This document shows, piece by piece, positions 1 to 16,755 of a stretch of 17,426 nucleotides of DNA. The DNA comes from a virus (lineage: Duplodnaviria; Heunggongvirae; Uroviricota; Caudoviricetes): IMG/VR virus record IMGVR_UViG_3300000292_000062. One strand, given 5' to 3'. A program made the translations under genes and the position numbers. The notes beneath the pieces are model-generated. The model did not search any database, was not told the DNA's origin, and saw only the letters and a list, made by a program, of their open reading frames with translations. How positions within the stretch are numbered: position 1 is the stretch's first letter; the number at the start of each line of letters is the position of its first letter.

Positions 1-558
1 GCTGCATTTATCCTTCGTGATATCGGACGTCGGCTGGTCATATTCATCCGCGACTGCCGGACCGTGATAACCGCACTCATCACCGCGATAGGTCCAGGTG
101 CAGGTGTTGGCCAGCATGATACGCCCCGGAAAAACAGCGCCATCCGTTTCCGTCGGCGTGGACAGTACAAAGGAGGCACTCACCGCGCTCAGTTCGCTGC
201 ACTGCTCGATGCGCCAGCGGCTGATCACCTCCTGCNNNNNNNNNNGGACCACCGTTCCGCCGACCAGACTCTGCATATCTTCCACCATACCGGTGACCAT
301 GCCGTACAGGTTAGAGACTGCCAGCGTGGGCCGCGTACTGGTGCCTTTGCCATTCAGTTCAAAACCGCTCCCCTGAATGGGATACGCCTGATACTGCCTC
401 CCCTGCCAGGTGACCGGCTCACCTTTTTCGTTCTGCTCATTACAGAAAAAATAACGTTCTCCACCGACCTCTGTCAGATCGATTTCCCAGAGCACCACGC
501 TGGCCGACTGCTCCGCACGGGTGCATTCATTCAATGTTTCCTGCCGGATATCCTGCAT
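1..558 (-). CDS. L: Minor tail protein L, second copy (L'), partial: runs off the window start and is interrupted by the N run at 236-245
   Basis: Minus-strand translation from ATG at 556-558 reads MQDIRQETLNECTRAEQSASVVLWEID, matching the lambda gpL N-terminus as recalled. Start overlaps the M' stop (ATGA). About 70 nt present in the paralogous copy at 1097-1166 is replaced here by 10 N, so the downstream frame cannot be trusted. Confidence 0.75.
   Translation of the reverse strand, partial: MQDIRQETLNECTRAEQSASVVLWEIDLTEVGGERYFFCNEQNEKGEPVTWQGRQYQAYPIQGSGFELNGKGTSTRPTLAVSNLYGMVTGMVEDMQSLVGGTVVXXXXQEVISRWRIEQCSELSAVSASFVLSTPTETDGAVFPGRIMLANTCTWTYRGDECGYHGPAVADEYDQPTSDITKDKCS
236..245. other. 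Assembly gap or masked bases (10 N) inside L'
   Basis: Run of N seen directly; comparison with the L paralog shows the true missing length is about 70 nt. Confidence 0.95.
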
Positions 559-887
559 CAGTTCACCACCTGTTCAAACTCTGCGCTGAACTCAACACGC
601 AGCATACTGACCCGCGACGACCATTTTGCGCAGGTCACCTTTATCTGCCTGTAACCATAAGGCGGCGTCCACAGAAAGGCCTTCCAGCCCCCGTGCTCAG
701 CCAGAAACGACTCCAGCGCCGTGGCCTCCTCACGGGAGACAGACAGCGTCACGCTGTACGTTTTCAGGTCAGCGTTCAGCCCGGCAGGCGCACGCTGGGA
801 ATAGCCATCACCAAAGCGCACCTCCCTGACGGAAGGAGCCGATGTCACATCCATCCCGGGTTTCACTTTCCAGCGGAAGGTTTTCAT
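558..887 (-). CDS. M: Minor tail protein M, second copy (M'), close to lambda gpM
   Basis: Translation MKTFRWKVKPGMDVTSAPSVREVRFGDGYSQRAPAGLNADLKTYSVTLSV...MLRVEFSAEFEQVVN is roughly 90% identical to lambda gpM as recalled. ATG at 885-887 is preceded by GGAGGTGGACG; stop overlaps the L' start. Confidence 0.85.
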   Translation of the reverse strand: MKTFRWKVKPGMDVTSAPSVREVRFGDGYSQRAPAGLNADLKTYSVTLSVSREEATALESFLAEHGGWKAFLWTPPYGYRQIKVTCAKWSSRVSMLRVEFSAEFEQVVN

Positions 888-907
888 CGTCCACCTCCGG
901 AGAACAG

Positions 908-917
908 NNNNNNNNNN
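908..917. other. Assembly gap or masked bases (10 N) between truncated L and M'
   Basis: Run of N seen directly; L is cut at about residue 187 of an expected ~232. Confidence 0.95.
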
Positions 918-1481
918 AGCCGGACCGTGATAACCGCACTCATCACCGCGATAGGTCCAGGTGCAGGTATTAGCCAGCATGATGCGCCCCGGAAAAACAG
1001 CACCGTCCGTTTCCGTCGGCGTGGACAGTACAAAAGAGGCACTGACCGCGCTCAGTTCGCTGCACTGCTCGATGCGCCAGCGGCTGATCACCTCCTGCTC
1101 CGGATCGGCGTCACTGTTTCCGTTGACGAAGTTCACCGCATCCAGAAAACGGGCGTAAACCTTACGCCTGACCACCGTTCCGCCGACCAGACTCTGCAGG
1201 TCTTCCGCCATCCCGGTGACCATTCCGTGCAGGTTAGAAACCGTCAGTGTCGGACGGGCAGCACTGCCCTTGCCGTTCAGTTCAAATCCCGTCCCCTGAA
1301 TGGGGTATGCCTGATACTGCCGCCCCTGCCAGGTAACCGGCTCACCTTTTTCGTTCTGCTCATTACAGAAAAAATAACGTTCACCACCGACCTCTGTCAG
1401 ATCGATTTCCCAGAGCACCGCCTGGGCTGACTGAGTGAGGCGTGTCGTCTCATGATGTGTTTCCTGTGGAATATCCTGCAT
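918..1481 (-). CDS. L: Minor tail protein L, first copy, N-terminal ~187 aa; 3' end lost in the N run
   Basis: Translation MQDIPQETHHETTRLTQSAQAVLWEIDLTEVGGERYFFCNEQNEKGEPVTWQGRQY...TWTYRGDECGYHGPA aligns with lambda gpL. ATG at 1479-1481 with GGAGG upstream. About 90% but not 100% identical to L' at 1-558. Confidence 0.8.
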
Positions 1482-1490
1482 CAGAGCCTC

Positions 1491-1820
1491 CTATGCCACG
1501 ACCTGTTCAAAATCTGCCGTTATGGTTACCCACAACGCCCCCACGCTTGCCGACCATTTACGACAAACCACCCTGATCGGCTTCCAGTCATAAGGTGGCG
1601 TCCACTGAAATGCGCGGACGCCACCGTGCCGTTCCAGAAAGGATTTTAAAGATGGGTGTTCACATTTACGAACACGTATCGTCACGCTGTAAGTCGACAA
1701 CTGGTTATTCAGTCCCGCCGCACGACGCTGTTCATAACCATCGCCCAGCTTCACTGTCACCACTTTCGGCTCTGATACCACATTCATATCCGGGCGCACT
1801 TTCCAGTGAAACGTCTCCAT
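1491..1820 (-). CDS. M: Minor tail protein M, divergent copy
   Basis: 109 aa, same length and position as lambda gpM, about half the residues conserved (FxWKVxPxM, GDGYxQR, TYSVT, WTPPY, ADFEQVV). Start overlaps the H stop by 1 nt. Confidence 0.8.
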   Translation of the reverse strand: METFHWKVRPDMNVVSEPKVVTVKLGDGYEQRRAAGLNNQLSTYSVTIRVRKCEHPSLKSFLERHGGVRAFQWTPPYDWKPIRVVCRKWSASVGALWVTITADFEQVVA

Positions 1821-4800
1821 TACCGATATGCTCCACTTAACCGACCACCATCACGGGCCTGCTGTTGCATAAAGTCCGCTGCCGCTTTTTTCCCAAGGTC
1901 ATAAACCACCTTCAGGGCAGCAGGACCTATCTGCCCGTTCGTGCCATCGTTATTGATCTCGATGTTGTACTGCGGGGCAAACATCGCCATACCTGAACCA
2001 CCAATATCCGCCACAACCCCCAGCTTACCGTCAGCACCACGACGCAGTGGCAGAATGGCTTCAGGTCCAGCTTCCCCCATCACACCCGCGCCTTTTGCAA
2101 AAGCAAAAAACGTCGGACGGTTAACCACCGTGCCACTGTAGCGACTCAAATCAGCCGACTGATAAACACCGCCATCAGCATTGGCTACAAAATCAAAAGG
2201 CAGCGCGGAAGCAATGCCTTTTACCGCTTTCATTAAAGCTATCTGAGCCATGATTCTGGACATATCTGACAGCACAGAAGAGGTGAAGGATTTGAAATTG
2301 AGTTTGCCTGTAGTACAGAATGTCGCCAGCCAGTCACTCATGCTACTGAACGCAGACGTGAACAACTGTTCCACTGTCCCGGCTGTGTTATCCGCATTCT
2401 CAGTGACATTCTGGAGTGCACGCAGGACTCCGTTTTTCCAATTACCCTGAGCAATTTCAAGCCGTTGCCAGTAACGGCGATTCTCATTCAGTTGTCGGTT
2501 CAGACTCTCCGTCAGCGCCTGCTCGGCCTTTCTGTAGTCATCCGTGTTATATGTCCCTTTCTGCTCACTATCCCGCCTCAACTGCTCCAGCTGTTGCTGG
2601 TATTTCTGGCGAAGACTCAGTTGTACCTGATATCGCTGCCGCTGCTGATCACCCATACCCACCGTGGCGATATCCAGGTCATGTTGCTGACGCTGAGCGC
2701 GCTCTTCTTCAGCCAGTTGACTGGTCAGCTGAATTGTTTTTTTCTTCAGATCGTTGAGTGCCGTCTGTTTCTGAAGCTCCTGCTGTTTTACATCCAGCAG
2801 CGTCAGTGCCTGAATCAGTTCATCTTTACGGGCCAGCACACTCTTTTCATCTGCCGTCAGTTTTTTCCCGTCCAGATCGCTGATGCGCTGCTGCAGAGCC
2901 AGAAGCTGTTTATGCGCTTCTGTCATCTTTTCAGTGGCAATGCCTGCTGACTGTCTTGCAGCAGCAATCTGTCCTTCCACCTGTGCCTGTTGCTGACTGT
3001 ACTGCAGCAATAACCGGGTGGCCTCATCATTACGGGTTTCGCGTGTTTTTTTCTTACCGGATGCCAGGGCTTTCTCGTAACGTTCATTTTCACGTTGTAT
3101 CGCCGCATCCCTGACAGCCTGATCGGCGTACTGCATGGCATTAATACGCGCAATTTCACGCTGATGTCGTGCAGCTTCCGTTTCATTCATCCGGTTCAGT
3201 GCAGCATTTTCAGCATTACGGCGTTTCTGTTGCTCCTGATAATTCCGCTCTGCCTGCTCTTTTGCATCCTGCAAATCCTTCTGGCGTTTTTTCTCCTGAA
3301 GATCGTTAAGACGCTGCTGATCGTATTCAACCTGAGAAGATGATGCCGTCCAGGGGAGTCTTTTCGCCCGCGACACTTTCTCCTGCAAAGTGGCAATCTG
3401 CGCATCCAGCGAATCTTCACGACCAATATTCATGGCCGCATCCCAGAACTGCTTCCACCAGTCAGACAAAGTTTGCAGCGTACTGCCCAGCGCATTGAGG
3501 TTATTATCAATATCCGCAGTACGCCGACCGGTTTCCTCTGCCAGTGCAGACATGGCTATCCGTGCCGCATCACTGGACCGCCCCTGCTCTCCAAGGACGC
3601 GTATCTGCTCAAGCTGAGTGGCAGTAAGAAAATGCAGCTCATTGTCCAGAGACTTCGCGGCATTTACAGGATCATCCTTCAGCCGCTTAAACTGATTTAT
3701 GGTATCGCTGACCGACTGGCCAACCGATCGCTCCATCTGTGCGGCAGCTCTCGCCACCATACCGATATCGTTTCCACGAAATGCACCACTCCCCACCACC
3801 TGAGCCAGCGCACCGGCTGCAGCATGTTGCGTGATACCATTCCCGGAAATAGCACGACTGAGCGTCCACAGCTGCCCGGCAGTGACTCCGGCATAATGCC
3901 CCGTCAGCGACAGCTGGCGGTTAAATTCTTCCCCCTCCTTCTGACCGTCATACCAGGCTTTACCCAGGCCATAGACAGCCGCGGCAATACCGCCAATAAC
4001 CCCGCCAAGCATCATGCCTTTCGGTGACATCAATGTGTCTATCCACCCGGCACGGTTAGCCAGCGTTATTCCGGATCCCCTCAGCGCACCTAAATTTCCG
4101 CGGGCCAGTTCACCTATCAGAACGCCTATCTCCTGACGGGCCGCTGCACTTTTCAGCCCCAGCGAATGCGTGGCTTTTCCTGCCTGCTCCATTTTGCGGA
4201 TATACACTTCTGCAGCACTGCTTACCCCCAGCTGGGCAGCCTTGGCACGAAGCAACTCAGAAGAAGAAAGATTCTGGCGGGTTGCCTGCTCTTTAAGCTG
4301 ACGGATAAACGCCACTTTCTGTCGGGTAGCCTCTTCCTCAGCCTGTGTAAGAACACGGGTTTTCGCCGTAACCTCAGAAATCAGCGCCAGATAATCCTGC
4401 TGACCAATCCCGCCACTGTTTCTGGCCTGNNNNNNNNNNNNNNNNNNNNNNNNNNNNNNNNNNNNNNNNNNNNNNNNNNNNNNNNNNNNNNNNNNNNNNN
4501 NNNNNNNNNNNNNNNNNNNNNNNNNNNNNNNNNNNNNNNGCAGACCCGCACTGGCCTGTTTCACACTGTCAATCTGACGATAAAACGCAGCAGCCGCTTT
4601 ATCCTGAGCCTCCGCCAGAGCCATGGCCTGCGCCTGTTCCTCGCGCATTTTCTGGCTCAGCGCCTCCATACGCTGGCGGGTTTTCTCCACCTCGCGGGCC
4701 ATGCGTTCATGAGCCTGTGCGTTCTTCTCCACCGTCTGCGCATGGACGGATGCGGCTGTTGCAGCCGAAGACGCCGCCTGCGTTGTCTGCCGGGCGGCCT

Positions 4801-4954
4801 GAGTCTGACGCTCCATAAAACGCTGCATACGGGCAGAAGACCGTTCTGCATCGCTGGCTGCACCATTCAGAAGGTTTTTGATACGGGGGATTTCATTTTT
4901 AAACTCTGCCGCATCAATCCCCAAATCAATGACCAGGTTGGCTATCTGGTCCAT
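1820..4954 (-). CDS. H: Tail tape measure protein (gpH-like), interrupted by a 110-N gap
   Basis: C-terminus ...EINNDGTNGQIGPAALKVVYDLGKKAAADFMQQQARDGGRLSGAYR matches the lambda gpH C-terminus. Long Ala/Gln/Glu/Arg-rich coiled-coil N-terminal two thirds. Probable start is MDQIANLVIDLGID at 4952-4954, preceded by GGAGGTG; the ORF-track start at 4984 is an in-frame extension. Confidence 0.85.
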   Translation of the reverse strand: MDQIANLVIDLGIDAAEFKNEIPRIKNLLNGAASDAERSSARMQRFMERQTQAARQTTQAASSAATAASVHAQTVEKNAQAHERMAREVEKTRQRMEALSQKMREEQAQAMALAEAQDKAAAAFYRQIDSVKQASAGLXXXXXXXXXXXXXXXXXXXXXXXXXXXXXXXXXXXXXQARNSGGIGQQDYLALISEVTAKTRVLTQAEEEATRQKVAFIRQLKEQATRQNLSSSELLRAKAAQLGVSSAAEVYIRKMEQAGKATHSLGLKSAAARQEIGVLIGELARGNLGALRGSGITLANRAGWIDTLMSPKGMMLGGVIGGIAAAVYGLGKAWYDGQKEGEEFNRQLSLTGHYAGVTAGQLWTLSRAISGNGITQHAAAGALAQVVGSGAFRGNDIGMVARAAAQMERSVGQSVSDTINQFKRLKDDPVNAAKSLDNELHFLTATQLEQIRVLGEQGRSSDAARIAMSALAEETGRRTADIDNNLNALGSTLQTLSDWWKQFWDAAMNIGREDSLDAQIATLQEKVSRAKRLPWTASSSQVEYDQQRLNDLQEKKRQKDLQDAKEQAERNYQEQQKRRNAENAALNRMNETEAARHQREIARINAMQYADQAVRDAAIQRENERYEKALASGKKKTRETRNDEATRLLLQYSQQQAQVEGQIAAARQSAGIATEKMTEAHKQLLALQQRISDLDGKKLTADEKSVLARKDELIQALTLLDVKQQELQKQTALNDLKKKTIQLTSQLAEEERAQRQQHDLDIATVGMGDQQRQRYQVQLSLRQKYQQQLEQLRRDSEQKGTYNTDDYRKAEQALTESLNRQLNENRRYWQRLEIAQGNWKNGVLRALQNVTENADNTAGTVEQLFTSAFSSMSDWLATFCTTGKLNFKSFTSSVLSDMSRIMAQIALMKAVKGIASALPFDFVANADGGVYQSADLSRYSGTVVNRPTFFAFAKGAGVMGEAGPEAILPLRRGADGKLGVVADIGGSGMAMFAPQYNIEINNDGTNGQIGPAALKVVYDLGKKAAADFMQQQARDGGRLSGAYR
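4430..4539. other. Assembly gap or masked bases (110 N) inside the tape measure gene
   Basis: Run of N seen directly; the H frame stays open across it. Confidence 0.95.
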
Positions 4955-5255
4955 AACGCACACCTCCGGAAATACCTTCCCCAAGATGCATCAGTTCTTC
5001 GTCCGTTCGCTCCGGTATCCCGTTCTCTTCCGGTAAAAGGCTGAAATCAGCCACCGCAGCATCACTGCTGCCGGACACCATTCTCACGATCAATGCCTTC
5101 AGCGAGGCAAACTGCGCATCCATCCACACATCACTGAAGCTCTGCATCCGGAAATAATCGCCCCACTCACCAAGCTCAGTGGCCGACATTTCCGACAGCA
5201 TCCGCCGCCAGTCTGCCCGCCGGAACTCCCGGGCAAGCCGCATGACAAACTGCAT
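4926..5255 (-). CDS. T: T segment of the tail assembly chaperone, expected to be expressed as a G-T fusion by -1 frameshift
   Basis: ORF in the -1 frame relative to G, between G and H as in lambda. The T frame opens only 4 codons upstream of the slippery heptamer. The 3' end overlaps the H start by 29 nt. Confidence 0.6.
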   Translation of the reverse strand: MQFVMRLAREFRRADWRRMLSEMSATELGEWGDYFRMQSFSDVWMDAQFASLKALIVRMVSGSSDAAVADFSLLPEENGIPERTDEELMHLGEGISGGVRYGPDSQPGH

Positions 5256-5263
5256 TTCCCGCG

Positions 5264-5653
5264 TCAGGACTTTTCCGGCGTCAGCGCCTCATGCTCATCA
5301 TCCCCGGCATTATCAATGGCCCCCATACCGCTCAGCGACAGAACCATCTCCGCCCCCGCACCCAGGGCATCATACGACCATGTTGTAATAACGGATGCGC
5401 AAAGCGTCTCTACATCCTTAGACTGATCCGCATTCCACAGTGAGCGGGAAACCAGCCAGGCATTGATATCCATCCCCATCCGCAGAAAAGCAATCTGTCG
5501 TTCAGCCTCCGGCAGTTCTCCCTCACCGGCATCAAACTTTGCCGTTCGCTGCTGAACAAACGCCAGATATTCAATTCTCTGCAACCCGGACAGCTCACTG
5601 AGCACCACGGACTGTTTTTCATAATTAAACGTGCCCTGTTTCAGAAACATCAT
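5264..5653 (-). CDS. G: Tail assembly chaperone G
   Basis: Position between V and T/H. Translation MMFLKQGTFNYEKQSVVLSELSGLQRIEYLAF... resembles lambda gpG (MFLK..., LSELSALQRIEHLAL) as recalled. Start taken at the internal Met rather than the ORF-track start at 5692. Confidence 0.7.
   Translation of the reverse strand: MMFLKQGTFNYEKQSVVLSELSGLQRIEYLAFVQQRTAKFDAGEGELPEAERQIAFLRMGMDINAWLVSRSLWNADQSKDVETLCASVITTWSYDALGAGAEMVLSLSGMGAIDNAGDDEHEALTPEKS
5270..5276 (-). promoter_or_regulatory. Putative programmed -1 ribosomal frameshift site GGAAAAG (G GAA AAG)
   Basis: Minus-strand sequence ...ACG CCG GAA AAG TCC TGA; the heptamer sits 2 codons before the G stop and differs by one base from lambda's G GGA AAG. 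The -1 frame (GGA AAA GTC...) leads into the T ORF. Confidence 0.45.
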
Positions 5654-5710
5654 GTTCTCCACCTGCAAAAAAGCCCCGGATAACCGGGGCAAATGATGAG
5701 TATCGTCCTG

Positions 5711-6454
5711 TTAACCTGCGGCGCTGACAGTCACCGCAGCCACAGCCACAAAATTCCCGTCAGCGGTCATGCCCACAATGCTGACACTGCCCTGCTTCAC
5801 GCCTTTCACCGTGGCCACAAGCCCGTTCAGGGTCACCGTGGCAGTCTGTGGATCTGACGAATGCACACTGATCGCTTTGTCACTGGCTCCGTCAGGTTTT
5901 ACTGTAAAGGTCAGCGTGGTGGTTGCTCCCACTTTTACACTGGCAGATGCCGGTGCCACCGTCAGCCCGGTAACGCTCACTGTTTCAGTGCCTTCCTCTG
6001 CCAGATACGGACGCCCCACACCGCTGATTTTCACAGTGCGGGTCATCACGTCTTTTGAGGCAATGGTTTTACCCAGTGAACTCAGCCAGCCACGGAAAAC
6101 ATCAACAGTACCGTTGGGATATTTGATACGAAACGCGCAGACTTCACCGGAGTCGAACAACTGAACCAGTTTTTTCTGCCCGCTGTCACCCGGACGCCAG
6201 GCCAGCGTCGCCGAAGTATCACCGACTGATTTCTGCCCCTGGGTTGTCGTTTTCCAGTCTGCATCTTCATCATCGAGATAAGTATCATCTTCTGCATCAG
6301 CGGTCATTTCGCCAGGTTGCAGATCCTTCACCATCGCAAGACGCAGCCAGTCAGTGTCCGACAAAGGGTTCGCAAATGCGTCGCCGTTGCCGGTATACAT
6401 CCAGAACGTCGTCCCCGCACCTTTCGTCTTTGCCAGTGGATTTGGTGTGGTCAT
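5711..6454 (-). CDS. V: Major tail protein V with C-terminal Ig-like domain
   Basis: Translation from MTTPNPLAKTKGAGTTFWMYTGNGDAFANPLSDTDWLRLA...YLDDEDADW...NGTVDVFRGW aligns with lambda gpV ([20 protein letters not shown]...). Ser/Thr/Val-rich C-terminus as in the gpV Ig-like domain. ATG at 6452-6454 preceded by AAGGAGGT. Confidence 0.85.
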   Translation of the reverse strand: MTTPNPLAKTKGAGTTFWMYTGNGDAFANPLSDTDWLRLAMVKDLQPGEMTADAEDDTYLDDEDADWKTTTQGQKSVGDTSATLAWRPGDSGQKKLVQLFDSGEVCAFRIKYPNGTVDVFRGWLSSLGKTIASKDVMTRTVKISGVGRPYLAEEGTETVSVTGLTVAPASASVKVGATTTLTFTVKPDGASDKAISVHSSDPQTATVTLNGLVATVKGVKQGSVSIVGMTADGNFVAVAAVTVSAAG

Positions 6455-6464
6455 TGCCACCTCC

Positions 6465-6866
6465 TTAATTCGTGTACGTGATCTGGTACGTGATTTCCGC
6501 CATCGCCCAGGTGGCCATCTCATTATCACGTTGATAGTTAAAACCGAGTGGGATCAGGGTGTCGATGAGTCCGGAAAGTGCCGGTACATCATTCAGGGCC
6601 GGGAAAATGGTGCTCTCCATCCACATATCCAGCTCTGAATCCGGTGCCTGTGCCCGGATGAAGACAGCAATATGCAGAACAGCCTGCCAGTCATCTTCAT
6701 CCGTCATTTTTCCGGTGTACTGAGCATCACTCAGCCACACCGCCACGGCAGGCAGTTCCTGCGCATCAACAAATGCCGGAAGCCCGTCAAAAAACGTGGC
6801 GCTGTCTCCACACTGTTCCCGAAGGCGTGCCAGTACGACCTGGCGGATTTGTGTATGTCGGTTCAT
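6465..6866 (-). CDS. U: Tail terminator protein U
   Basis: About 133 aa; motifs ATFFDG, PAVAV, YTG, DSELD.WMES match lambda gpU. ATG overlaps the Z stop (ATGA). Confidence 0.8.
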   Translation of the reverse strand: MNRHTQIRQVVLARLREQCGDSATFFDGLPAFVDAQELPAVAVWLSDAQYTGKMTDEDDWQAVLHIAVFIRAQAPDSELDMWMESTIFPALNDVPALSGLIDTLIPLGFNYQRDNEMATWAMAEITYQITYTN

Positions 6867-7441
6867 CGGGTCAGCCATAACCTCAGTTGTTGTTTCAGTG
6901 CATACCCCAGCTGTTTCGGCATTTCCGCAGCAATGATGCGGTCGCGGGCATCTTCAAATGCCTGTGTCAGCGGTCCGGACAGCGGGATTTTCACCACATC
7001 AATGGGGTAACGATTTTTGCCATCAATACGCCGCATCACATGCCAGCGACCATTCGCCAGTTGCTGAATAAACGCATCCCGGAAAAGATATTTACCCACC
7101 TTCAGCACACTGCCACGGTACTGCAGTTTTCCACCACGCCGGGCCAGTCTGACCCGGGCTGTCCCCAGCTTAATGGCGGGCAGATTGCCCCGGTTAACGC
7201 GGATCCTGGCCGTCATTTTTCCTGACGGACTGGCTTTAAACACCCGGACACGCTGACGTACCAGTTTCAGGGGGATCCCTTTCACCTGGTTATCTCCCGC
7301 AACGGTATTCCCGGCAACCTGCCGGGTGGCAACCGAGACCGCTTTCTGTGCCACACGGTTTATCGCCCATGCGCTGGCCTGTGGCACCATACGGGTATCA
7401 AGGCTGTTCAGATTGCGGATGGCATTCTCAAGCCCCTTCAT
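6863..7441 (-). CDS. Z: Tail completion protein Z
   Basis: 192 aa; MKGLENAIRNLN..., FIQQLANGRWHVMRRIDGKNRYPIDVVKIP..., LGYALKQQLR match lambda gpZ as recalled. Confidence 0.8.
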   Translation of the reverse strand: MKGLENAIRNLNSLDTRMVPQASAWAINRVAQKAVSVATRQVAGNTVAGDNQVKGIPLKLVRQRVRVFKASPSGKMTARIRVNRGNLPAIKLGTARVRLARRGGKLQYRGSVLKVGKYLFRDAFIQQLANGRWHVMRRIDGKNRYPIDVVKIPLSGPLTQAFEDARDRIIAAEMPKQLGYALKQQLRLWLTR

Positions 7442-7452
7442 CCCACACCTCT

Positions 7453-7728
7453 TTACTCAATAAAGATCATTGGCTTACCGTTAAAGCGTTCATGCCGTGT
7501 GACCGTCCATTGTTGTCCGTCATAAACAACGCGATCCCCGCGCCGTGGGCGGTATCCCGAAGAAAACACCACCAGAGAGACCGCAGGTCCGGACAGAGCA
7601 TTCAGCTCTGCCAGTGTTTCTCCCAGGATCACAGCCATATCGACATCATTAATCGAGGCTGTCTTTCCCATCTTTCTGACCGTGATCGCATCCATACGCG
7701 CTGCCAACCGGGAAAAGGGATCAGACAT
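7453..7728 (-). CDS. Small head-tail joining protein (FII-like position)
   Basis: 91-aa ORF between the head genes and Z, coupled by overlap to its neighbours. Assigned by position and size; sequence similarity to lambda FII is weak. Confidence 0.5.
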   Translation of the reverse strand: MSDPFSRLAARMDAITVRKMGKTASINDVDMAVILGETLAELNALSGPAVSLVVFSSGYRPRRGDRVVYDGQQWTVTRHERFNGKPMIFIE

Positions 7729-8044
7729 TGAGTTTTACCGGCACTTCTTCTGCACTGGTTCCGGCATCTGCCCAGACAACCCCGACCAGCGGATCAGAGC
7801 CGCTGTTAGTCAGCTGAACTTTTCCGGACTTCAGATAAACCTTCTTACCCGTTTTCATGTCATCCGTTTTCAGCTTAGGCAGCATAAACACACCTTCGGT
7901 CATGCCGTCGCCTGTTTCACCCTGTGGAATATCGGTCAGCGCCACCGCAAAAACATCGCCCACCTGCACCAGATCTCCGCTGCTGATGGCTGCACTGGCA
8001 ACAATCGCCACCGTTTTTCCTTCTTCTACAAAATTCTTTGCCAT
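7721..8044 (-). CDS. Small head-associated protein (possible head decoration or DUF2190-like)
   Basis: About 107 aa from MAKNFVEEGKTVAIVAS..., directly downstream of the capsid gene. GGAGA RBS 6 nt upstream of the ATG at 8042-8044. Function inferred from position only. Confidence 0.55.
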   Translation of the reverse strand: MAKNFVEEGKTVAIVASAAISSGDLVQVGDVFAVALTDIPQGETGDGMTEGVFMLPKLKTDDMKTGKKVYLKSGKVQLTNSGSDPLVGVVWADAGTSAEEVPVKLNV

Positions 8045-8086
8045 AACTGTCTCCGCACAGCCCCGTTCAGGGGCTGATTTCAGGTA

Positions 8087-8106
8087 CAAAAAAAGCCCTT
8101 ACGGGC
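8087..8106 (-). terminator. Candidate intrinsic terminator downstream of the capsid gene
   Basis: Minus strand reads GCCC-GTAA-GGGC followed by TTTTTTT, 25 nt after the capsid stop. The stem is only 4 bp; a second 7-bp hairpin (CAGCCCC/GGGGCTG, 8058-8076) lies next to it. Confidence 0.4.
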
Positions 8107-8130
8107 CATCAGAGTTGTTGTCTGCGACGT

Positions 8131-10089
8131 TTACGCCGTACATTTCACCAGACCGCGGTGATCAACTGGCGCGACACCGGCGTCAATACGCACTTTCGTT
8201 GTCACGCCATCCACACTGAAGCCCTCCATCTGATCAATATATGGCGTATCCACACCGTTGAGATAAGCCACTTCAATCGTATCGGAGCCTTTGGACGCAG
8301 CCAGGTAGAAAGTGGTCTGGCTGTTATCATCAAGACGAGGCTCTGCAATAACGGTCGCAAAATCTTTCACCGGGTTAATAATACCGGCGTTAATGTCAGC
8401 CCCCTTGACACTTGAGGAGCGAATGACCTGGTTAGCAACAGACTCCATCGCCGTCGGTACCAGTACGAACGCAGGACGAATATTCAGATGACGCTCCCCC
8501 TCTTTCTGAACGCGCATCAACTGGCGGGCTTTATCCAGCGATGCCACGTCCATTGCAGCGCTCTCCAGTACGTTTGCATGTTTCGCTTTATCGAACAGAC
8601 TTACATTATCTGTGGAGATTTTCGGGTTAGACGTCAGAATGGCATAAACCAGATCGGCAATAGTGGATTTCGCCGCACGGCCCAGTTTCATCGGGACATC
8701 GGTCAGCATATTCAGATCATCATTGATAATGGCCTGACGGGTGATACTGAACAGCTCGCCATAGGTCGCCAGTGCAATAGTGGCCTGTTTATCTCCGGTG
8801 GTGACGTATTTATATTCCGCCCCTTCACGCACCTTACGCAGAGCACTGAAGCCCCCCATACCCACACGATGGGCAATTTTAAAATCAGACAACTGACCTT
8901 TCCGCGTCCACTGTTCATAGGTTTCAGGGGCATCTTCCCAGCCCTGCAGAATGGCTTTGTTCGCAACATCCAGCAGAATATTACCGAAGTCAGACGTACT
9001 GTGTGTGAACGCCGCACCGACCATCTGCATCGGGTTATAACTGGAAACACCAATACCCCGTTCAGTCAGTGACATACGGGCATATTCACGCAGAGTCATC
9101 CCGTTGTAGACATTATCACGTTCGGTTTTTTCAAATCCGGCACGCGCCATCAGCGCCTGGCGGATCCCGTCCCCCACAAAATTACCGTTACCGGCATAAA
9201 TATGAGCCGGGGTATTTTTATTGGATGGCGTGGACTCGCGCCCCATCTCGTTCAACAGCTTTTCGCGGGCCTGCTCCAGCGAACATTCAGGATCGGCAAG
9301 GCACTGAGCCTGCAGCGTCTGATAACGCCCGCCAAACATGGCAAACAGATCATTAATACCGTTTACACGCGCTTTTTGCTCTGCCAGTACCTGCGCACGG
9401 ATACTGTTTTCATCCAGCACGGGTGCTGCTGCCTGCACTGGCGTCCGGGAGGCTGCAGGTTCATTATCCTGTACGCGTGGAGCACTGTTACGTGGCGGAG
9501 TAATCATGTTTCGAATGGATTCCGGCATCTTTTTAAATTCCTCTGTACGTTTTGACTGAATACATGCCATTGCCTTAACGGCTGGCGTCACCTGATCAGC
9601 AAATCCCTGTGCCAGACATTCGGCACCGGACATCCAGGTCTCATCCGCCAGCATGGCAGCAATTTCATCGGTGGTTTTCCCGGTTTTCTGTGCATAAGCG
9701 GGTAACAGAACCGCCTCAACTTTATCGAGCAGGTCGGCATAGGTGCGCATGTCCTCCGCATCACCGCCCGTAAAGCCAAATGGTTTATGAATCATCATGA
9801 AGGTGTTTTCCGGCATAATGACCGGGTTTCCCACCATCGCAATGACCGACGCCATTGACGCCGCCACACCGTCGACATAAACGGTAATGGACGCACCATG
9901 TGTTTTCAGTGCATTAAAAATGGCGATGCCTTCAAAGACATCGCCACCCGGTGAATTGATATGGAGATTAATGTGGGTGATATCGCCCAGTGCATTCAGA
10001 TCACTGATAAACTGCTTCGCCGTAACACCCCAGAAACCAATCTCGTCATAAATATAAATATCCGCATCACTCTGGTGACCAGCCTGCAT
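8131..10089 (-). CDS. Prohead protease (ClpP/S14-like) - scaffold - major capsid protein fusion
   Basis: N-terminal part (IYIYDEIGFWGV...INSPGGDVFEGIAIFNALK...VDGVAASMASVIAMVG...MMIHKP) has ClpP-like serine protease motifs; a Gln/Ala-rich linker follows; the C-terminal ~300 aa is capsid-like. Start taken at MQAGHQSD (ATG 10087-10089) because the ORF-track N-terminus overlaps the portal gene. Confidence 0.75.
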   Translation of the reverse strand: MQAGHQSDADIYIYDEIGFWGVTAKQFISDLNALGDITHINLHINSPGGDVFEGIAIFNALKTHGASITVYVDGVAASMASVIAMVGNPVIMPENTFMMIHKPFGFTGGDAEDMRTYADLLDKVEAVLLPAYAQKTGKTTDEIAAMLADETWMSGAECLAQGFADQVTPAVKAMACIQSKRTEEFKKMPESIRNMITPPRNSAPRVQDNEPAASRTPVQAAAPVLDENSIRAQVLAEQKARVNGINDLFAMFGGRYQTLQAQCLADPECSLEQAREKLLNEMGRESTPSNKNTPAHIYAGNGNFVGDGIRQALMARAGFEKTERDNVYNGMTLREYARMSLTERGIGVSSYNPMQMVGAAFTHSTSDFGNILLDVANKAILQGWEDAPETYEQWTRKGQLSDFKIAHRVGMGGFSALRKVREGAEYKYVTTGDKQATIALATYGELFSITRQAIINDDLNMLTDVPMKLGRAAKSTIADLVYAILTSNPKISTDNVSLFDKAKHANVLESAAMDVASLDKARQLMRVQKEGERHLNIRPAFVLVPTAMESVANQVIRSSSVKGADINAGIINPVKDFATVIAEPRLDDNSQTTFYLAASKGSDTIEVAYLNGVDTPYIDQMEGFSVDGVTTKVRIDAGVAPVDHRGLVKCTA

Positions 10090-10102
10090 CCTGAACCAGG
10101 AA

Positions 10103-11611
10103 TTATTCTTCGGACTGGTTGTTGGTGTGCTGCGGCTCCTGTCGTTTCGTTGCGGCACTGCTGCCTCCTTTATCACTGGCCGGATCGGTATCAAATACCA
10201 GATCCAGCTTGCGGTTTTCATCAATTTCGGCCTTGCGCCGACGTTTGACATCATCCGGATTACGACCACCAGCACGTACCCAGTCTGATTCTGTCGCCGC
10301 TCCACCACGAATCTGGATTTTCCAGGCCTCAGCCTCCTTAACAGGGTCAATCCACGGCATCACCGGTCCGGAATACACCGCGGTATACAGTGAAGAACGG
10401 TCAAGATCGCGGGGTAGCCTGATAACACCGGATGCCACAGCCTGTTTCAGCCAGGCACGGTACATCGGGCGGGTGACGGCACCAATAAACCAGTCCTGCA
10501 GGATCAGGTAGCCATCAGTGGATTCAACCAGCTCCTGACGCTGGGCGCTGTAAGTGCCGTTATAGTTGCGCGCTGTACTGGAAAAACTCAGACGACTGCC
10601 AGCCGCCACGGCACGCAACTGACCATTACGAAAAGTTTCAAGGTTAGGATTGGGACGATCCGACTTCACCATTCCGATTTCTTCGCCGGGTTTCAGATCG
10701 TCGTAAATAATGCCTGGCTGAATGGTAAGCTCGCGTTCATTCTCCTTGCTGTCATTACCATCCGTTTCATAGCTCTGTCCGTCGCCTTTCCGGATGTACA
10801 TCCCCAGAGCAGCGGCGATCCTTGCTGCAGTCAGCTCAGAATCTTCATACTCTTTCAGGGCGCTGAGGCGGATCAGCACACCGGACAATAAAGACGTCCC
10901 GCGCATCTGGTGCAGACGGCGAACAAATTTAAGATGCAGCATTCGCTCTGCATCCACTTCTTTGGTTTCCATCTGCCGTCCGGATACAGGACGACTTTTA
11001 TACACCAGATATTTTTCGGGACGCCCCCAGTCATCAACAAACACGCCCTGATTCAGCCTGTTGCTCTCATCACTGGTCATGGGAATAAAGTCCGGCTCGA
11101 GCGCCTCCAGCCAGAAATGAACACCGGCAGAAGGCGTCAGGCTGTTTATGCGCCCGGAAACCATCTGGGCAAACACCTCACCATCGCGCAGCCAGGTACG
11201 CAGCATCAGACGTTCCAGCATCGGACGGGTAAACTGCCCGGTGACTTCCGGACTGACAGACCATTCACTCCATCGGGTACGTATCTCCGCTGCCAGGTCA
11301 CGGGCAATGGCACCATTGCGTAATACCGGATGTGGCTCGACAATAATCCCGTTTTTCCCCACCACCCGTTCTTCCAGCTTGTCAAATACACCAATGACCA
11401 GATCGTGGTTGTTATCAAGGTAACGGGCCTGCTCACGTAACGACACGGCCCCGTACTGGCTTAACTGGTCGGCAGTTCGGTTCTCCCGTCGGGCTTTGTG
11501 TGTCCGCGTCGTTTTTACGGCCTCATAAGCTTGGATCACCGCTCGGGAACGCAGCCTTGCCGCTTTCCATCCTGGTGAAAAAACGCCAATCACATCATCA
11601 AGAATTGCCAT
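10103..11611 (-). CDS. Portal protein (lambda gpB-like)
   Basis: About 502 aa directly downstream of terminase and the W-like gene. Start MAILDDVIGV... at ATG 11609-11611 overlaps the W stop (TGATG); the longer ORF-track N-terminus is rejected. Confidence 0.8.
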   Translation of the reverse strand: MAILDDVIGVFSPGWKAARLRSRAVIQAYEAVKTTRTHKARRENRTADQLSQYGAVSLREQARYLDNNHDLVIGVFDKLEERVVGKNGIIVEPHPVLRNGAIARDLAAEIRTRWSEWSVSPEVTGQFTRPMLERLMLRTWLRDGEVFAQMVSGRINSLTPSAGVHFWLEALEPDFIPMTSDESNRLNQGVFVDDWGRPEKYLVYKSRPVSGRQMETKEVDAERMLHLKFVRRLHQMRGTSLLSGVLIRLSALKEYEDSELTAARIAAALGMYIRKGDGQSYETDGNDSKENERELTIQPGIIYDDLKPGEEIGMVKSDRPNPNLETFRNGQLRAVAAGSRLSFSSTARNYNGTYSAQRQELVESTDGYLILQDWFIGAVTRPMYRAWLKQAVASGVIRLPRDLDRSSLYTAVYSGPVMPWIDPVKEAEAWKIQIRGGAATESDWVRAGGRNPDDVKRRRKAEIDENRKLDLVFDTDPASDKGGSSAATKRQEPQHTNNQSEE

Positions 11612-11823
11612 CAGAACCTCGCCAGCCGGTACCCGGGATGCCCCCGTCGTCGTGTAATCAGAGCCGCAAGGCGGCGCTCCCACTCCTGCCGCCCCTGCCG
11701 GATCTCAGATAAGTTTTCCATGGTCATCTGCTGACCATTAAAAGTGACGGATTTTCCGTCCAGCACTGCCATTTCAGCTTCCGTATAACGCTGAATCATG
11801 GCTTCAATATCATTCTGATTCAT
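11611..11823 (-). CDS. W: Head-tail joining protein (gpW-like)
   Basis: About 70 aa between large terminase and portal, as lambda W. C-terminal RRRGHPGY resembles lambda gpW ...QRRRGPAGF. ATG overlaps the TerL stop (ATGA). Confidence 0.65.
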   Translation of the reverse strand: MNQNDIEAMIQRYTEAEMAVLDGKSVTFNGQQMTMENLSEIRQGRQEWERRLAALITRRRGHPGYRLARF

Positions 11824-13922
11824 AACCATCCTCCGGAAGTCAGCCAGGGGTTAACATCGTCAGTTACTGTTTTCTTCCGTTTTTGTTTTTTAACAGGCGT
11901 GGATACCGGTTCCGGTGTGGGTGACGGTTCGGTACTGTCCGGGACACACTCCAGCCAGGTTTCCCGGCTCGCCCACTCCGGTGCATCCGGCCAGCGGATC
12001 TTTTCGTATCCATGCAGAATGACCAGAGCCTCGGCATACACCATCAGGTCAAAAGCTTCGTTGGCACCGCGACCCGGCTTACTCCATTTCCCGTCACTGC
12101 TCCGCTCTTCATACGTCAGTTCGTCGTAAAACCAGCTCCCCAGCCAGTCAGGGAAATGCACATAGCCGGGACCTGGCGAGTCACGCCATAACGCGTTATT
12201 CACCCGGTCTTTCAGGGCATCCGTCTGAAGAAGCCAGAGCGGTACATCACCTGCGGCCTGCGCCCGTCGGCCCGTTCGTCCGGTGTTATCAGGGAATGTA
12301 CGGGTGATCAGTTTTGCGCGCCGGATGCTGTCGCCCTTAAACAGGTAAATACGTTTACCAAGGCCATCACGACGGCAACGACGCCAGAATTTATAGGCAT
12401 TATCAGTGACCCCGTCTTCACCGCCGGAGTCCACCGCCATTGCCATCAGTCGCATTTGTTGAGAAGGATCGGAGGCCAGCGGCCAGCTTTTATGAAAAAC
12501 ATCCGTCAGCAGGACATCCCAGTCTTCCGGATAGCTGGCCGGATCAATTCGCTGGCTCTCCCCGTCGCTGTCACCGCGCAATGACTGCGTGATGTTGTAA
12601 CGATCAATAATCCAGCGTTCGCCACGGCTGCCATAGCCCGTTACCTGAACCACAAAACGGCGATGAAGTCCCGCCTGCACATCCACTGTCGCCACAAGGA
12701 AATTAACGCCATCCGGAACACTGCGGGAAGGAACTGGCTCTGCCCGCTGCTCAAGCAATTCACTTTTTCGTTGCTCCATGCTGGCGCGGGGAAGATAAGG
12801 TAATCCCCAGTCTGTATTGATAACCGTCTTGAGTGTCTCTTCACTTCCGGTTGTCTCGTATTCCTGTTCTGCAGTAAGCAGTTTGTAAACGAGTTGCGAG
12901 AGTGTCTGATAAGCAGCTGCCGGCCCCTCCATCCAGAATGACGCAATACGTGAACGCCGGGGATCACCATAACGACTGCCATCTGCATTGATGGATTCAC
13001 CATCCCGTAACCAGACCCCACGTCCGTTCAGCTCGCGTTTTTGTTCAGGCAAAATCCGTCCTGAACAGGAAGGACACTGAATATAAGCCGCCTCACTTGC
13101 CAGCACAGGATCGGCAATATCACGGAAACCAGCAACCACATCGCCGCAGGGCTGAAAATACTCACCACAGTGTGGACAGGGCCAGTACCAGCGACGGCGA
13201 TCGCCACGGTTATAGAGCGACAGGATCCCCGTGGTTGGTGGAGCCTCATGCGGTGAAGTCCGTCGCCATTTCACATCCTTCACATCCCTGCCGGGGGAAC
13301 TCTCCACCAGCGTCATACCACTGGACATAAATGTGGTGGTACGTTTTGAGGCAAGAGAGAAGGCATCCCCCTCACCATCAATATCTTCCGGAAAACGGTC
13401 ATAATCCGTCAGCGCCACGCATTTATAATCTGATGAAGACATGATATTGACTGACGGCCAGCCGATTTTCAGGTAGTTGCCAGCAAGGAATGTTCTGTCA
13501 TAAACGTTGTTGTCATTTTTGTTCGGACTCAGGCGACTGACCACTTCCGGGCTGACGCGAAACGTTCTGGCGAGTCGTTTTTTGGAGTGTTCGCGGGCTT
13601 TTTCCTCCGTCATCTGAATGATCAGCATATCAGCAGGATCGCAAATCACGTTGTAAATCACCCAGCCGTCAATCAGGCCGATAGTCTTGCCGGTTCGTGC
13701 CGGGCCAACAAATATCACTGCGTCGTATTCACGCGAGGCCAGGCAGTTCATAGGCTCAATAACATACGGTGCCACCAGCGGATCCCACGGGACTGAGTTC
13801 CCTGCCCCCATGGGCACCCGCATATACTGAGCAACGGCATCAGCAACCCGCATTCGTCTCGGTGCGCGAAGGATATAACCTGAATCGGTTCGTGCTGCCT
13901 TTGCGGTTTCCTGATTCAGCAT
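11820..13922 (-). CDS. Terminase large subunit (gpA family)
   Basis: 700 aa; Walker A-like GPARTGKT near the N-terminus; WPCPHCGEY resembles the lambda gpA ACPHCGEE zinc-ribbon-like motif. Coupled to TerS upstream and W downstream. Confidence 0.85.
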   Translation of the reverse strand: MLNQETAKAARTDSGYILRAPRRMRVADAVAQYMRVPMGAGNSVPWDPLVAPYVIEPMNCLASREYDAVIFVGPARTGKTIGLIDGWVIYNVICDPADMLIIQMTEEKAREHSKKRLARTFRVSPEVVSRLSPNKNDNNVYDRTFLAGNYLKIGWPSVNIMSSSDYKCVALTDYDRFPEDIDGEGDAFSLASKRTTTFMSSGMTLVESSPGRDVKDVKWRRTSPHEAPPTTGILSLYNRGDRRRWYWPCPHCGEYFQPCGDVVAGFRDIADPVLASEAAYIQCPSCSGRILPEQKRELNGRGVWLRDGESINADGSRYGDPRRSRIASFWMEGPAAAYQTLSQLVYKLLTAEQEYETTGSEETLKTVINTDWGLPYLPRASMEQRKSELLEQRAEPVPSRSVPDGVNFLVATVDVQAGLHRRFVVQVTGYGSRGERWIIDRYNITQSLRGDSDGESQRIDPASYPEDWDVLLTDVFHKSWPLASDPSQQMRLMAMAVDSGGEDGVTDNAYKFWRRCRRDGLGKRIYLFKGDSIRRAKLITRTFPDNTGRTGRRAQAAGDVPLWLLQTDALKDRVNNALWRDSPGPGYVHFPDWLGSWFYDELTYEERSSDGKWSKPGRGANEAFDLMVYAEALVILHGYEKIRWPDAPEWASRETWLECVPDSTEPSPTPEPVSTPVKKQKRKKTVTDDVNPWLTSGGWL

Positions 13923-14413
13923 TACTCCTCCTGCTGTAATTCCTCCTCATCATCCGCACCTGCTTCGGTCACCCGCAGGGCTATCTGATCGCGCAGATCA
14001 TCAATAATGGACTGAACACGGCTCACAGCGGCAGGCTGCAGGCCGCAGTCACGTTCCAGAATATCCGGTAATGTCTCCAGCACCTGCACGACCGCTTTTG
14101 CCCAGATGGCAAACTCCCGTCTGACATCACTGGCCGGAATGAGTTGTGCCGTTTCCTGTTCGAACTTAAGACGCTCACGTTCAGACTGATACCAGGCTTT
14201 GCGTTCATGTGGATCCATTTCGCCCTCAGCAACCGGCGGTGGTAACCCCATAAATTCAGTCAGAATATCGGTCAACCGGTATAGCTTGAGTTTGTCATGT
14301 CCACCAGCGGGACGAATGTTTTTCAGTCTTGCCACGACAGTCTGGCGGTGCAGACCAGATAAAGCCGCCAGTTGATTAATATTCAGCACCAGGTTTTTCA
14401 ACTCATGATCCAT
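13922..14413 (-). CDS. Terminase small subunit (Nu1-like, N-terminal winged HTH)
   Basis: 163 aa. N-terminus INQLAALSGLHRQTVVARLKNIRPAG is HTH-like, comparable to lambda Nu1 KKQLADIFGASIRTIQNWQEQGMPV; acidic C-terminus. Sits directly upstream of TerL with a 1-nt overlap; GGAGG RBS 5 nt before the ATG at 14411-14413. Confidence 0.75.
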   Translation of the reverse strand: MDHELKNLVLNINQLAALSGLHRQTVVARLKNIRPAGGHDKLKLYRLTDILTEFMGLPPPVAEGEMDPHERKAWYQSERERLKFEQETAQLIPASDVRREFAIWAKAVVQVLETLPDILERDCGLQPAAVSRVQSIIDDLRDQIALRVTEAGADDEEELQQEE

Positions 14414-14465
14414 ATATCCTCCGGAGAGCTTTAAACATGCATCGTGCGAACAACTTTAAGAAAAC

Positions 14466-14502
14466 GCGTTCGATGTCGAACAAAAAACACTCAATTCGAC
14501 AT
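14466..14502. promoter_or_regulatory. Dyad-symmetric repeats in the terminase leader, candidate small-terminase binding sites (cosB-like)
   Basis: GTTCGATGTCGAAC (14468-14481) is a palindrome; ATGTCGAA (14473-14480) and TTCGACAT (14495-14502) form an inverted repeat with a 14-nt A-rich spacer. CGAACA recurs at 14447 and 14477. Located between the putative cosN and the TerS start, where lambda cosB lies. Confidence 0.35.
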
Positions 14503-14582
14503 ACAAAAAACAAACAACCATTAATAATCAATAAGATGCAAAGATGATGGTGGCCGATAAAAATGCAAAAACTAGCCTTTTT

Positions 14583-14602
14583 CCGCGACGCTCCCGCCCC
14601 GT
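14583..14602 (-). other. Putative cohesive-end site (cosN-like)
   Basis: Minus strand reads GGGGCGGGAGCGTCGCGGAAAAAGG, against the lambda left end GGGCGGCGACCTCGCGGGTTTTCGC as recalled. Lies about 170-190 nt upstream of the small terminase start, as cosN does relative to Nu1. Confidence 0.4.
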
Positions 14603-14701
14603 GGCAGGGCCCCCCACAGGGAGGACCCGACAGCCTGACAACCGTGACGAGCATCTGAAACAGAGCTTTACATAATGGCGTGGGGATAATTCAGAAGGAC
14701 A

Positions 14702-14932
14702 TCACAGCATGCCCACACAAATTAGTGTGAGTGTCCTGTTTCTTCCACCCCCGCACAGGACTGGCGAGCATGAGGGACAACCCCGCGAACCATAACCGCG
14801 CTGATGACAGGACTGGCCCGGCTTGTATTGCTTCCAGCCTTCGCTTTTGTGGCTTTTGCAATAGCCTGACGGATCTGTGGTGGTATTGCGGTAGCCGCGA
14901 ACACGGCAGGTTTTTGGGGTTCGTGGGGGCAT
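14702..14932 (-). CDS. Hypothetical small Cys-rich protein (76 aa), uncertain
   Basis: ATG at 14930-14932 preceded by GGAG at 5-nt spacing. Translation MPPRTPKTCRVRGYRNTTTDPSGYCKSHKSEGWKQYKPGQSCHQRGYGSRGCPSCSPVLCGGG... has 7 Cys. It lies in a GC-rich island where three frames are open, so it could be spurious. Confidence 0.25.
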   Translation of the reverse strand: MPPRTPKTCRVRGYRNTTTDPSGYCKSHKSEGWKQYKPGQSCHQRGYGSRGCPSCSPVLCGGGRNRTLTLICVGML

Positions 14933-15154
14933 ATGTACTCCAATGAAGAAGCCACCAACATAGCCTCCTCCATTCATCGTGAAACTATTTTCATCTACCC
15001 AGTAATGAATTCTTTGAAGAGTTGTGATCAATACAACTCGCTAATGGAGAGGCTTGTCTCACACGTGAGACAAGCTTCCTGTTTGATTTACTGGACAGTA
15101 TAGGAGGACAGAATGCCTTCCTCACTCGAATAACATCAATTAAGGAGGTTCAAC

Positions 15155-15277
15155 ATGTTTCATTCCACAAGTCATCAGGCTGTAATTATGGCAGCATCAG
15201 TTTGTGCCACAGACCTTTTCCGCTTCACTTTGAGCCTGATTCATTTCTACCTGACCGGCTCGCCTCTATCTTTCTAA
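15155..15277 (+). CDS. Hypothetical 40-aa peptide with a strong RBS, uncertain
   Basis: TAAGGAGGT at 15141-15149, 5 nt before the ATG at 15155. Translation MFHSTSHQAVIMAASVCATDLFRFTLSLIHFYLTGSPLSF is moderately hydrophobic. It is on the strand opposite the lysis genes, as bor is in lambda. Confidence 0.25.
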   Translation: MFHSTSHQAVIMAASVCATDLFRFTLSLIHFYLTGSPLSF

Positions 15278-15398
15278 TCCCCGATTAATCCAAATTTCAC
15301 TGCCATAATGCCGACATTCTCTGCCATTGTTGGCTCCGTTTATCCGTTAAAAGGGATATCAGTTAAGTTATCCCGTGCAGGGTATAAGCCATTATCAA

Positions 15399-15458
15399 AG
15401 CCACTCTGTAGGGAGTGGCTTTTGTAATGGCAATAAAAAGCCCCGCGAATGCGAGGCT
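15399..15458. terminator. Pair of adjacent hairpins, candidate bidirectional terminator between the lysis operon and the accessory region
   Basis: 15399-15420 is a perfect 8-bp stem AGCCACTC/GAGTGGCT with a 6-nt loop, followed by TTTGT on the plus strand. 15439-15458 forms a 7-bp stem with one mismatch, followed on the minus strand by TTTTTATTG, about 200 nt downstream of Rz. Confidence 0.45.
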
Positions 15459-15637
15459 AAATCCTGGTATTTGTAATGACTGGCTCTTATCTCAACGCAG
15501 CCCCTTACCGCGCGCAAGATGCTCAATATCAAGCATCAGCAATGAGATGTTTAATCTGGATTCACTCCAGAAGTGATCACCATCCTGTCTACAGAGCCAG
15601 ATGTGAAGGATGATGAGTAAAATTATCGCTATCATCG

Positions 15638-15721
15638 NNNNNNNNNNNNNNNNNNNNNNNNNNNNNNNNNNNNNNNNNNNNNNNNNNNNNNNNNNNNNNN
15701 NNNNNNNNNNNNNNNNNNNNN
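15638..15721. other. Assembly gap or masked bases (84 N) covering the 3' ends of Rz and Rz1
   Basis: Run of N seen directly. Confidence 0.95.
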
Positions 15722-16112
15722 TACCGAGAACGTTTCGTCCAGCAACTGGAGAGAGTTCGACGGTGGCATCATTGCCCATGCCGGAGGCGCTGGAGGTTTC
15801 GGCTGAGGATGGCACAGGGCATTTTCCTTTGACGAACACCCGACCACCATTATCAAGCTTGCGCCGAAGAGCATCATTTTTAGCTTTCGCATCAGCTAAC
15901 TCCTTCGTGTATTTAGCATCGAGTGCATCAGCAGCACGCTGGCGCTGCTGCATGTCAGTAATGGTGGCGGTCGCCTGCTTCAGCTCACTGACTTTTTTAT
16001 CACGCTGTTCTTTATAGGCGATGGCGTTATCACGGTAATGATTGACCGCCCACGACAGGCAGACGATGATGCAGATAACCAGAGCATAAATAATCGCGGC
16101 GACTCTGCTCAC
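15638..16112 (-). CDS. Rz: Spanin inner-membrane subunit Rz (i-spanin); 3' end lies within the N run
   Basis: Translation [39 protein letters not shown]...[19 protein letters not shown] is near-identical to lambda Rz as recalled. Probable GTG start at 16110-16112 overlaps the R stop (GTGA), replacing lambda's ATG. The ORF-track extension to 15492 beyond the gap is rejected. Confidence 0.85.
15722..15892 (-). CDS. Rz1: Spanin outer-membrane lipoprotein Rz1 (o-spanin), embedded in Rz in the +1 frame; 3' end in the N run
   Basis: [44 protein letters not shown]... has a lipobox (VVGC) and a proline-rich core like lambda Rz1 (MLKLKMML...VVGCTSK...KPPPPPAW). ATG at 15890-15892. Confidence 0.75.
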
Positions 16113-16642
16113 TGATCTATCCCCCAACAGGCTAATGCGCTTTCCTGGTCACGACGAATAACTTGCCCATAGCAGTTATTTGAACGTATGCGGCAATCGC
16201 GCCCACCATCTTTTATCCACCAACGAATCGCCTCACATGCACCCTTACGATCACCGGCATTCAGCCGCTTATAAAACGTCGACGGGAAACACTTACCAGG
16301 GCCAATGTTATAGGGACAGAATGACGCGATACCGGCTTTCTGTGGCTCGGTCAGTGGAACTTTTATATTGCGCTCCACCCATGCCAGCGCCTTATCCCGC
16401 TCAATGGCGTTAACCTGGGCGCATTTTTCCTTCGACAGTTTCATTCCCGGAATAACAGGTTTACCGTCCACCATCGTTGCTCCCCGACAGATGGTCCATA
16501 TGCCGGAGCCATCGCGGTATGCAGTGGTGTGATTCCCCTCTTTTTCATCCAGAAACTGATCGAGAATGTCAGGGGCAGGAGCACTGGCGGCAATCAGTGC
16601 CAGAACAGCAGCCGACAGGCTGTATCTGATTTTTACGTTCAT
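16109..16642 (-). CDS. R: Phage endolysin, lysozyme type (T4-lysozyme-like), with a hydrophobic N-terminal signal or SAR segment
   Basis: 177 aa; [56 protein letters not shown]... closely resembles the 177-aa lysozymes of lambdoid prophages (E. coli Qin RrrQ and Stx-phage R, as recalled). Immediately upstream of Rz. Confidence 0.9.
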
Positions 16643-16755
16643 GGATATTTATCAGGATTTATCGGCTTCAAATCCCCGGATATGTTAAATCTTACCTCAC
16701 CAGTGATGGGCACTGGCGGGAGGAGGATGTCAATCTGATAAACACAGAGGTGACT

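Follow-up and report, generated by a model that had tools for sequence, protein, structure and literature searches.

An apparent second M-L gene pair beside an assembly gap in a lambdoid prophage scaffold is very probably an assembly artefact

Introduction

In phage lambda the genes H, M, L, K, I and J follow one another in that order (NC_001416, 10542-18903). Two kinds of departure from a single M-L pair are relevant here. In draft genomes, the copies of a false duplication typically have an assembly gap between them (PMC9516828; PMC2864568). Within one deposited complete genome, that of Escherichia coli FY26 (NZ_CP101741.1), the order is H'-M'-L'(159 nt)-M'-L'(396 nt), followed by two tRNA-Arg genes and a holin gene, where primes mark the lambda-like gene set. 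The FY26 repeat region (4130064-4130967; L002, 2918-4170) holds an exact 508-nt tandem repeat made up of the H' tail, M' and L' nt 1-159, and the second L', cut at nt 396, is fused to the two tRNA-Arg genes and the lysis cassette.

Here we examine a stretch of viral DNA of 17,426 nt (IMG/VR record IMGVR_UViG_3300000292_000062), referred to throughout as the window, in which two diverged M-L pairs appear in tandem on either side of a run of Ns. An initial annotation, made from the sequence alone, had considered a scaffold chimera of two lambdoid prophages the likeliest explanation and a real tandem duplication unusual. We have determined where each piece of the window belongs in finished genomes, reconstructed the contig ends with a de Bruijn graph, and searched for the L-to-M' adjacency in complete genomes and in IMG/VR.

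Results

Layout of the scaffold

Four runs of N are present in the window, at 236-245 (10 N), 908-917 (10 N), 4430-4539 (110 N) and 15638-15721 (84 N), so the window is a scaffold of at least five contigs; the last two runs were absent from the initial annotation. We refer to 1-235 as contig A, to 246-907 as contig B and to the sequence from 918 onward as C. P1 is the prophage of C, P2 the second, lambda-like prophage that gives A and B, and P3 a third prophage type.

All of the genes concerned lie on the minus strand, in the order H, M, L (cut), M' and L' that had been described, with every element found where it had been placed except that M' ends at 558 and not at 560. In P1, the tape-measure gene H (1820-4954, with the start annotated in the identical complete genome) is broken by the 110-N run. 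It is followed by M (1491-1820), which encodes 109 residues and shares 56.5% of them with lambda gpM, against an earlier estimate of about half. L of P1 (918-1481) comprises nt 1-564 of 699 and ends at codon 188, directly before the N run, essentially at the residue (~187) first proposed for the truncation; over these 188 residues it is 91.0% identical to lambda gpL.

On the other side of the run at 908-917, contig B opens with the last 7 codons and the stop of the tape-measure gene H' (884-907), to which the 20 nt upstream of M' (888-907) belong. Their presence shows M' to derive from an H'-M'-L' module. M' (558-887) encodes 109 residues and is 90.8% identical to lambda gpM, as the estimate of roughly 90% had it, and its stop codon overlaps the start of L' as ATGA. 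The 5' part of L' (246-558) covers nt 1-313 (104 codons) and is 97% identical to lambda gpL, while contig A carries L' nt 384-618 (codons 129-206). Taken together the L' pieces are 97-99% identical to gpL, so that the match first seen at the N-terminus is borne out. The two L copies agree at 433 of 494 comparable nucleotides (87.7%), close to the 90% previously given.

The assignment of these genes to families is straightforward. Proteins exactly matching M and M' have precomputed matches to the lambda gpM family (PF05939, Phage_min_tail). For the lambda gpL family (PF05100, Phage_tail_L), the identities to gpL given above are joined by position, since both L and L' lie directly downstream of a gpM homologue. 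The full-length counterparts of L and L' in finished loci (L003 and L012) are 232 residues long and are annotated as, or match, PF05100 or minor tail protein L. Both L copies in the window are incomplete solely because of the contig ends.

The lengths of the N runs can be compared with the sequence that they replace. The flanks of 236-245 lie 70 nt apart in the finished P2-type locus, and the alignment to the other L copy concurs, so that the 10 Ns stand for exactly 70 nt of L' (nt 314-383), in agreement with the figure of about 70 nt that had been proposed. Relative to the complete genome of E. coli FDAARGOS_1304, the 110 Ns at 4430-4539 replace 32 nt and the 84 Ns at 15638-15721 replace 71 nt. 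Given these three discrepancies, gap lengths in this scaffold are mere estimates. The longest reading frame for H (1820-4984) has 1054 codons from a TTG and crosses the N run; the annotated protein in the identical complete genome has 1018 residues. The Ns inflate the length of this frame, and H probably starts at about 4954.

Each piece has a home in finished genomes

The sequence from 918 to 17426 aligns to the complete genome of FDAARGOS_1304, which may not be the source strain, with 1 mismatch over 16,315 aligned nt. The genes of that locus run H-M-L(699 nt)-K-I-J-Lom-tail fibre, with an intact L and a single M-L pair followed by K. Strain O177:H21 has the same gene order.

Contigs A and B belong elsewhere. 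Contig A is 100% identical to positions 4713-4947 of L012 (GCA_000459635.1) and contig B matches the same locus with 1 mismatch; the two are collinear there and lie within the canonical H'(868 aa)-M'-L'(232 aa)-K'-I'-J' module of another lambdoid prophage type. Among the best complete-genome matches listed, 60 of 60 hold A and B as one 967-nt place overlapping a tape-measure gene. FDAARGOS_1304 is not among these 60 matches listed for window 1-907, which give one place per record. By these sequence comparisons, the join of A to B across 236-245 is a correct adjacency with the wrong gap size, and only the join at 908-917 appears to be false.

Co-residence of the P1 and P2 types is found in MS20653, FDAARGOS_1300, MS21324, EC9682 and W224N, where the two lie 0.4-3.3 Mb apart. 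More generally, the number of places per E. coli genome that match the 1-907 segment has a median of 2 and reaches 7. From such comparisons with other genomes, we infer that the P1 and P2 pieces would occupy separate loci in the source genome as well.

Contig ends coincide with break points of a k = 55 graph

The positions at which the contigs stop are not arbitrary. Contig A consists of a P2-specific core of 127 nt (L nt 438-564) with 54 shared nt on each side, and since 235 = 127 + 2x54, k = 55 is the only value that fits. Window position 246, next to a 55-nt shared run, is the first P2-specific base and distinguishes P2 from P1, and 918 is the first P1-specific base past a 65-nt run common to P1 and P2. 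At the other end of contig B, window 400-907 is a 508-nt run identical in the P2 type and in a very common prophage type (L004); 907 is the last base of the run, and the base adjoining it is polymorphic among lambda-like prophage types.

Three separate prophage segments, L003 (P1), L012 (P2) and L004 (P3), were entered into a node-centred de Bruijn graph with k = 55. One of its unitigs coincides exactly with contig A at either end, including window position 1, so that contig A is a complete unitig. A P2 unitig starts 54 nt before 246, a P1 unitig starts 54 nt before 918, and the 508-nt shared node is window 400-907. Thus the contig ends at 1, 235, 246, 907 and 918 are all break points of this graph, reproduced to the base. 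The five ends are explained together if the first contig was written in full and later contigs without their first k-1 bases. Velvet scaffolds, as we take it, are written in just this way, with a minimum gap of 10 N. A literature search returned no statement on a Velvet minimum gap of 10 Ns, and the argument is independent of it. From k = 55, the 54-nt trimming pattern and this behaviour of the program, Velvet would be the assembler.

Because the graph reproduces the contig ends, the breaks are repeat-induced and the 10-N runs are placeholders that carry no distance information. The graph is silent as to the location of P2, since truly tandem copies would give identical breaks. The end at 907 calls for at least three prophage types, of which P3 is assumed from other genomes. 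The coincidence of position 1 with a predicted unitig end indicates that the window most likely begins at a physical scaffold end, and 1-907 was most likely not joined to K', I' or J' in the source assembly.

The same arithmetic fits the remaining gaps only loosely. For the gap in H it predicts an 86-nt node, which falls within an identical block of ~98 nt; the 110-N run sits in this block of the tape-measure gene, which is identical among otherwise divergent H genes. At the 84-N run no repeat was found among the fetched loci, none of which contains the 125-nt node predicted for the lysis-region gap. The right end of the window (17426) lies inside a YdfR-family pseudogene adjoining the holin gene (L003, 24172-24507). 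The region at this end is 97.6% identical to the lysis region of another prophage in FY26, and for this reason the right end may be a repeat-induced scaffold end too; on the sequence, the window may thus be the whole 17.4-kb scaffold.

The L-to-M' adjacency was not found outside the window

In all 20 genomic contexts returned for the proteins identical to M or to M', wherever genes were called, the next ones were L, K, I and J. A second M after L was never seen in these 20 contexts, and M was preceded in them by the tape-measure gene or by a remnant of one.

The complete genomes were searched with a junction query that joined window 831-907 to 918-977 with the Ns removed, the two halves being too far apart in the normal order to merge. 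They came within joining distance in only one of 5,426 complete E. coli genomes, strain 214-4, and this match was rejected, as the locus is canonical in order and carries an internal deletion. In that strain (L071; NZ_CP025840.1, 4865-5539) M has lost its 3' end and L its 5' part, leaving two annotated pseudogenes in normal order. Hence this part of L adjoins the start of M' in the order of the window in none of the 5,426 complete E. coli genomes, which bears out the initial view that a real tandem duplication would be unusual.

We also collected, by a 70-nt exact pattern next to the gap, 47 IMG/VR loci with a P1-type L segment. In none of the 47 does M'-like sequence lie downstream of L; it occurs upstream only, as the ordinary partner gene. 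A junction search of IMG/VR with the 10 Ns as wildcards gave 0 matches, a count that is probably uninformative, since literal Ns in the targets may not match. In seven of the IMG/VR loci (L038, L041, L053, L054, L055, L057 and L070) an M'-type, lambda-like M stands with an L that has a P1-type 3' segment. Since these loci mix the two types, homologous exchange in M-L between lambdoid phages does occur, and L is a mosaic gene.

Discussion

Origin of the apparent duplication

Our analysis indicates that the apparent tandem M-L copy is very probably an assembly artefact, in which P2 contigs were stuck onto the end of the P1 scaffold across Ns. The scaffold chimera first suspected is strongly supported by the finished genomes, the adjacency searches and the graph, with two amendments: two prophages do not suffice, as at least three types are needed, and of the two 10-N joins only that at 908-917 is false.

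The events can be pictured as follows. The window would be a single scaffold from an E. coli draft assembled from short reads, apparently starting at a scaffold end. The source genome would have carried several lambdoid prophages, whose M-L regions are identical over stretches of 50-70 nt and once over 508 nt, and a de Bruijn assembler with k = 55 would have broken the contigs at these shared runs. A scaffolder would then have attached small leftover P2 contigs to the broken end of P1 inside L, contig B (H' tail, M' and L' nt 1-313) and contig A (L' nt 384-618), writing gaps of the minimum length of 10 N. Read pairs passing through the collapsed shared runs presumably caused the link. The outcome would be an M-L pair of P2 set beside that of P1, mimicking a tandem duplication that flanks an assembly gap.

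Alternative explanations

Two readings keep the P2 fragments apart from P1. Contigs A and B could stem from contamination or from another strain in the sample, rather than from another prophage of the source genome. We found no direct support for this, although contamination too would give short contigs of low context at a scaffold end, and we think it very unlikely: E. coli genomes often hold two or more places matching these contigs, and since several complete genomes carry both types a second strain is unnecessary. The other reading concerns what ends contig B at 907. If, as in FY26, the P2 locus held the 508-nt H'-tail/M'/L'(1-159) segment twice in exact tandem, this could take the place of P3, with the join to P1 still false. 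FY26 is the only complete genome that matches contig B at 100%, and its repeat unit is exactly window 400-907. On each side, however, the unit ends at a site that varies among prophage types, and lambda-like types with exactly this 508-nt run in common are very frequent. The FY26 arrangement may be artefactual as well: a shared node bounded by variant sites is the kind of repeat unit that untrimmed end-to-end joining of contigs would leave, and from its sequence the FY26 repeat is probably such an untrimmed contig overlap and not biology. When the FY26 repeat junction was used as a query, 2,125 complete genomes appeared to match, an uninformative count, since the search joins pieces that are not collinear and only 508 nt separate the two halves of the query where the gene order is normal. 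We regard a repeat of this kind at the P2 locus as highly improbable.

The scarcely credible alternative is that the order is real, i.e., that one prophage holds H-M-L-M'-L' in tandem, with L truncated or full, through recent illegitimate recombination or unequal exchange between two resident lambdoid prophages, and that the Ns hide the true junction. The scaffolder did link the contigs in this order, M-L recombination among lambdoid phages does occur, with some IMG/VR loci pairing an M'-type M with a P1-type L 3' segment, and the deposited complete genome of FY26 does have a tandem M'-L' fragment. Against this, the same arrangement appears in no independent assembly among the 20 exact-protein contexts, the 47 IMG/VR loci and the 5,426 complete genomes, and the closest complete genome, FDAARGOS_1304, passes from an intact L to K. 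Moreover, the codons that open contig B are the end of H', so a real tandem order would have to join L to the H' tail, with which it has no homology. Instead of an uninterrupted junction there is an N run, and while a unique junction would have let contig B extend, it halts where the 508-nt run common to prophage types ends. The argument against a real duplication rests on the finished genomes, the H' tail in contig B, its stop at a repeat boundary and experience with draft assemblies (PMC9516828; PMC2864568). Were the duplication true, it would be a modest curiosity concerning recombination between co-resident lambdoid prophages, with two diverged copies of M and L in tandem.

Under the artefact that we favour there is no biological novelty here, and the locus serves as a warning. 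Gene callers would count one M too many, together with a truncated L and another, partial L, and such miscalled genes inflate counts and suggest a non-existent duplication or mosaic junction in a prophage tail module. The arithmetic of contig ends, a shared core plus 2x(k-1), exposes repeat-induced breaks from the sequence alone; it cannot by itself place the copies.

Comparison with known systems

Both M/L pairs of the window are homologous to gpM and gpL of phage lambda, and each pair sits between H and K in finished genomes, as in lambda. The extra M'-L' after L, in contrast, is matched neither in lambda nor in the finished genomes examined. The FY26 arrangement resembles the window in that its M' sequence is that of contig B and the boundary of its repeat corresponds to window base 907, and differs in that the FY26 copies are 100% identical over the 508-nt unit, no N gap lies between them and no P1-type L is involved.

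There is also a likeness to the heterotype false duplications described by Kelley & Salzberg (2010; PMC2864568) and Ko et al. (2022; PMC9516828). As in those cases, diverged copies stand side by side with an assembly gap between them, here the N run at 908-917 between L and M', and apparent extra and truncated genes result. The arrangement is likewise missing from better assemblies, in that FDAARGOS_1304, with the reservation already made as to its being the source strain, has a single M-L pair and the adjacency is found in 0 of 5,426 genomes. The difference is one of ploidy: those copies are the haplotypes of a diploid genome, whereas the bacterium here is haploid and its two copies are paralogous prophage modules.
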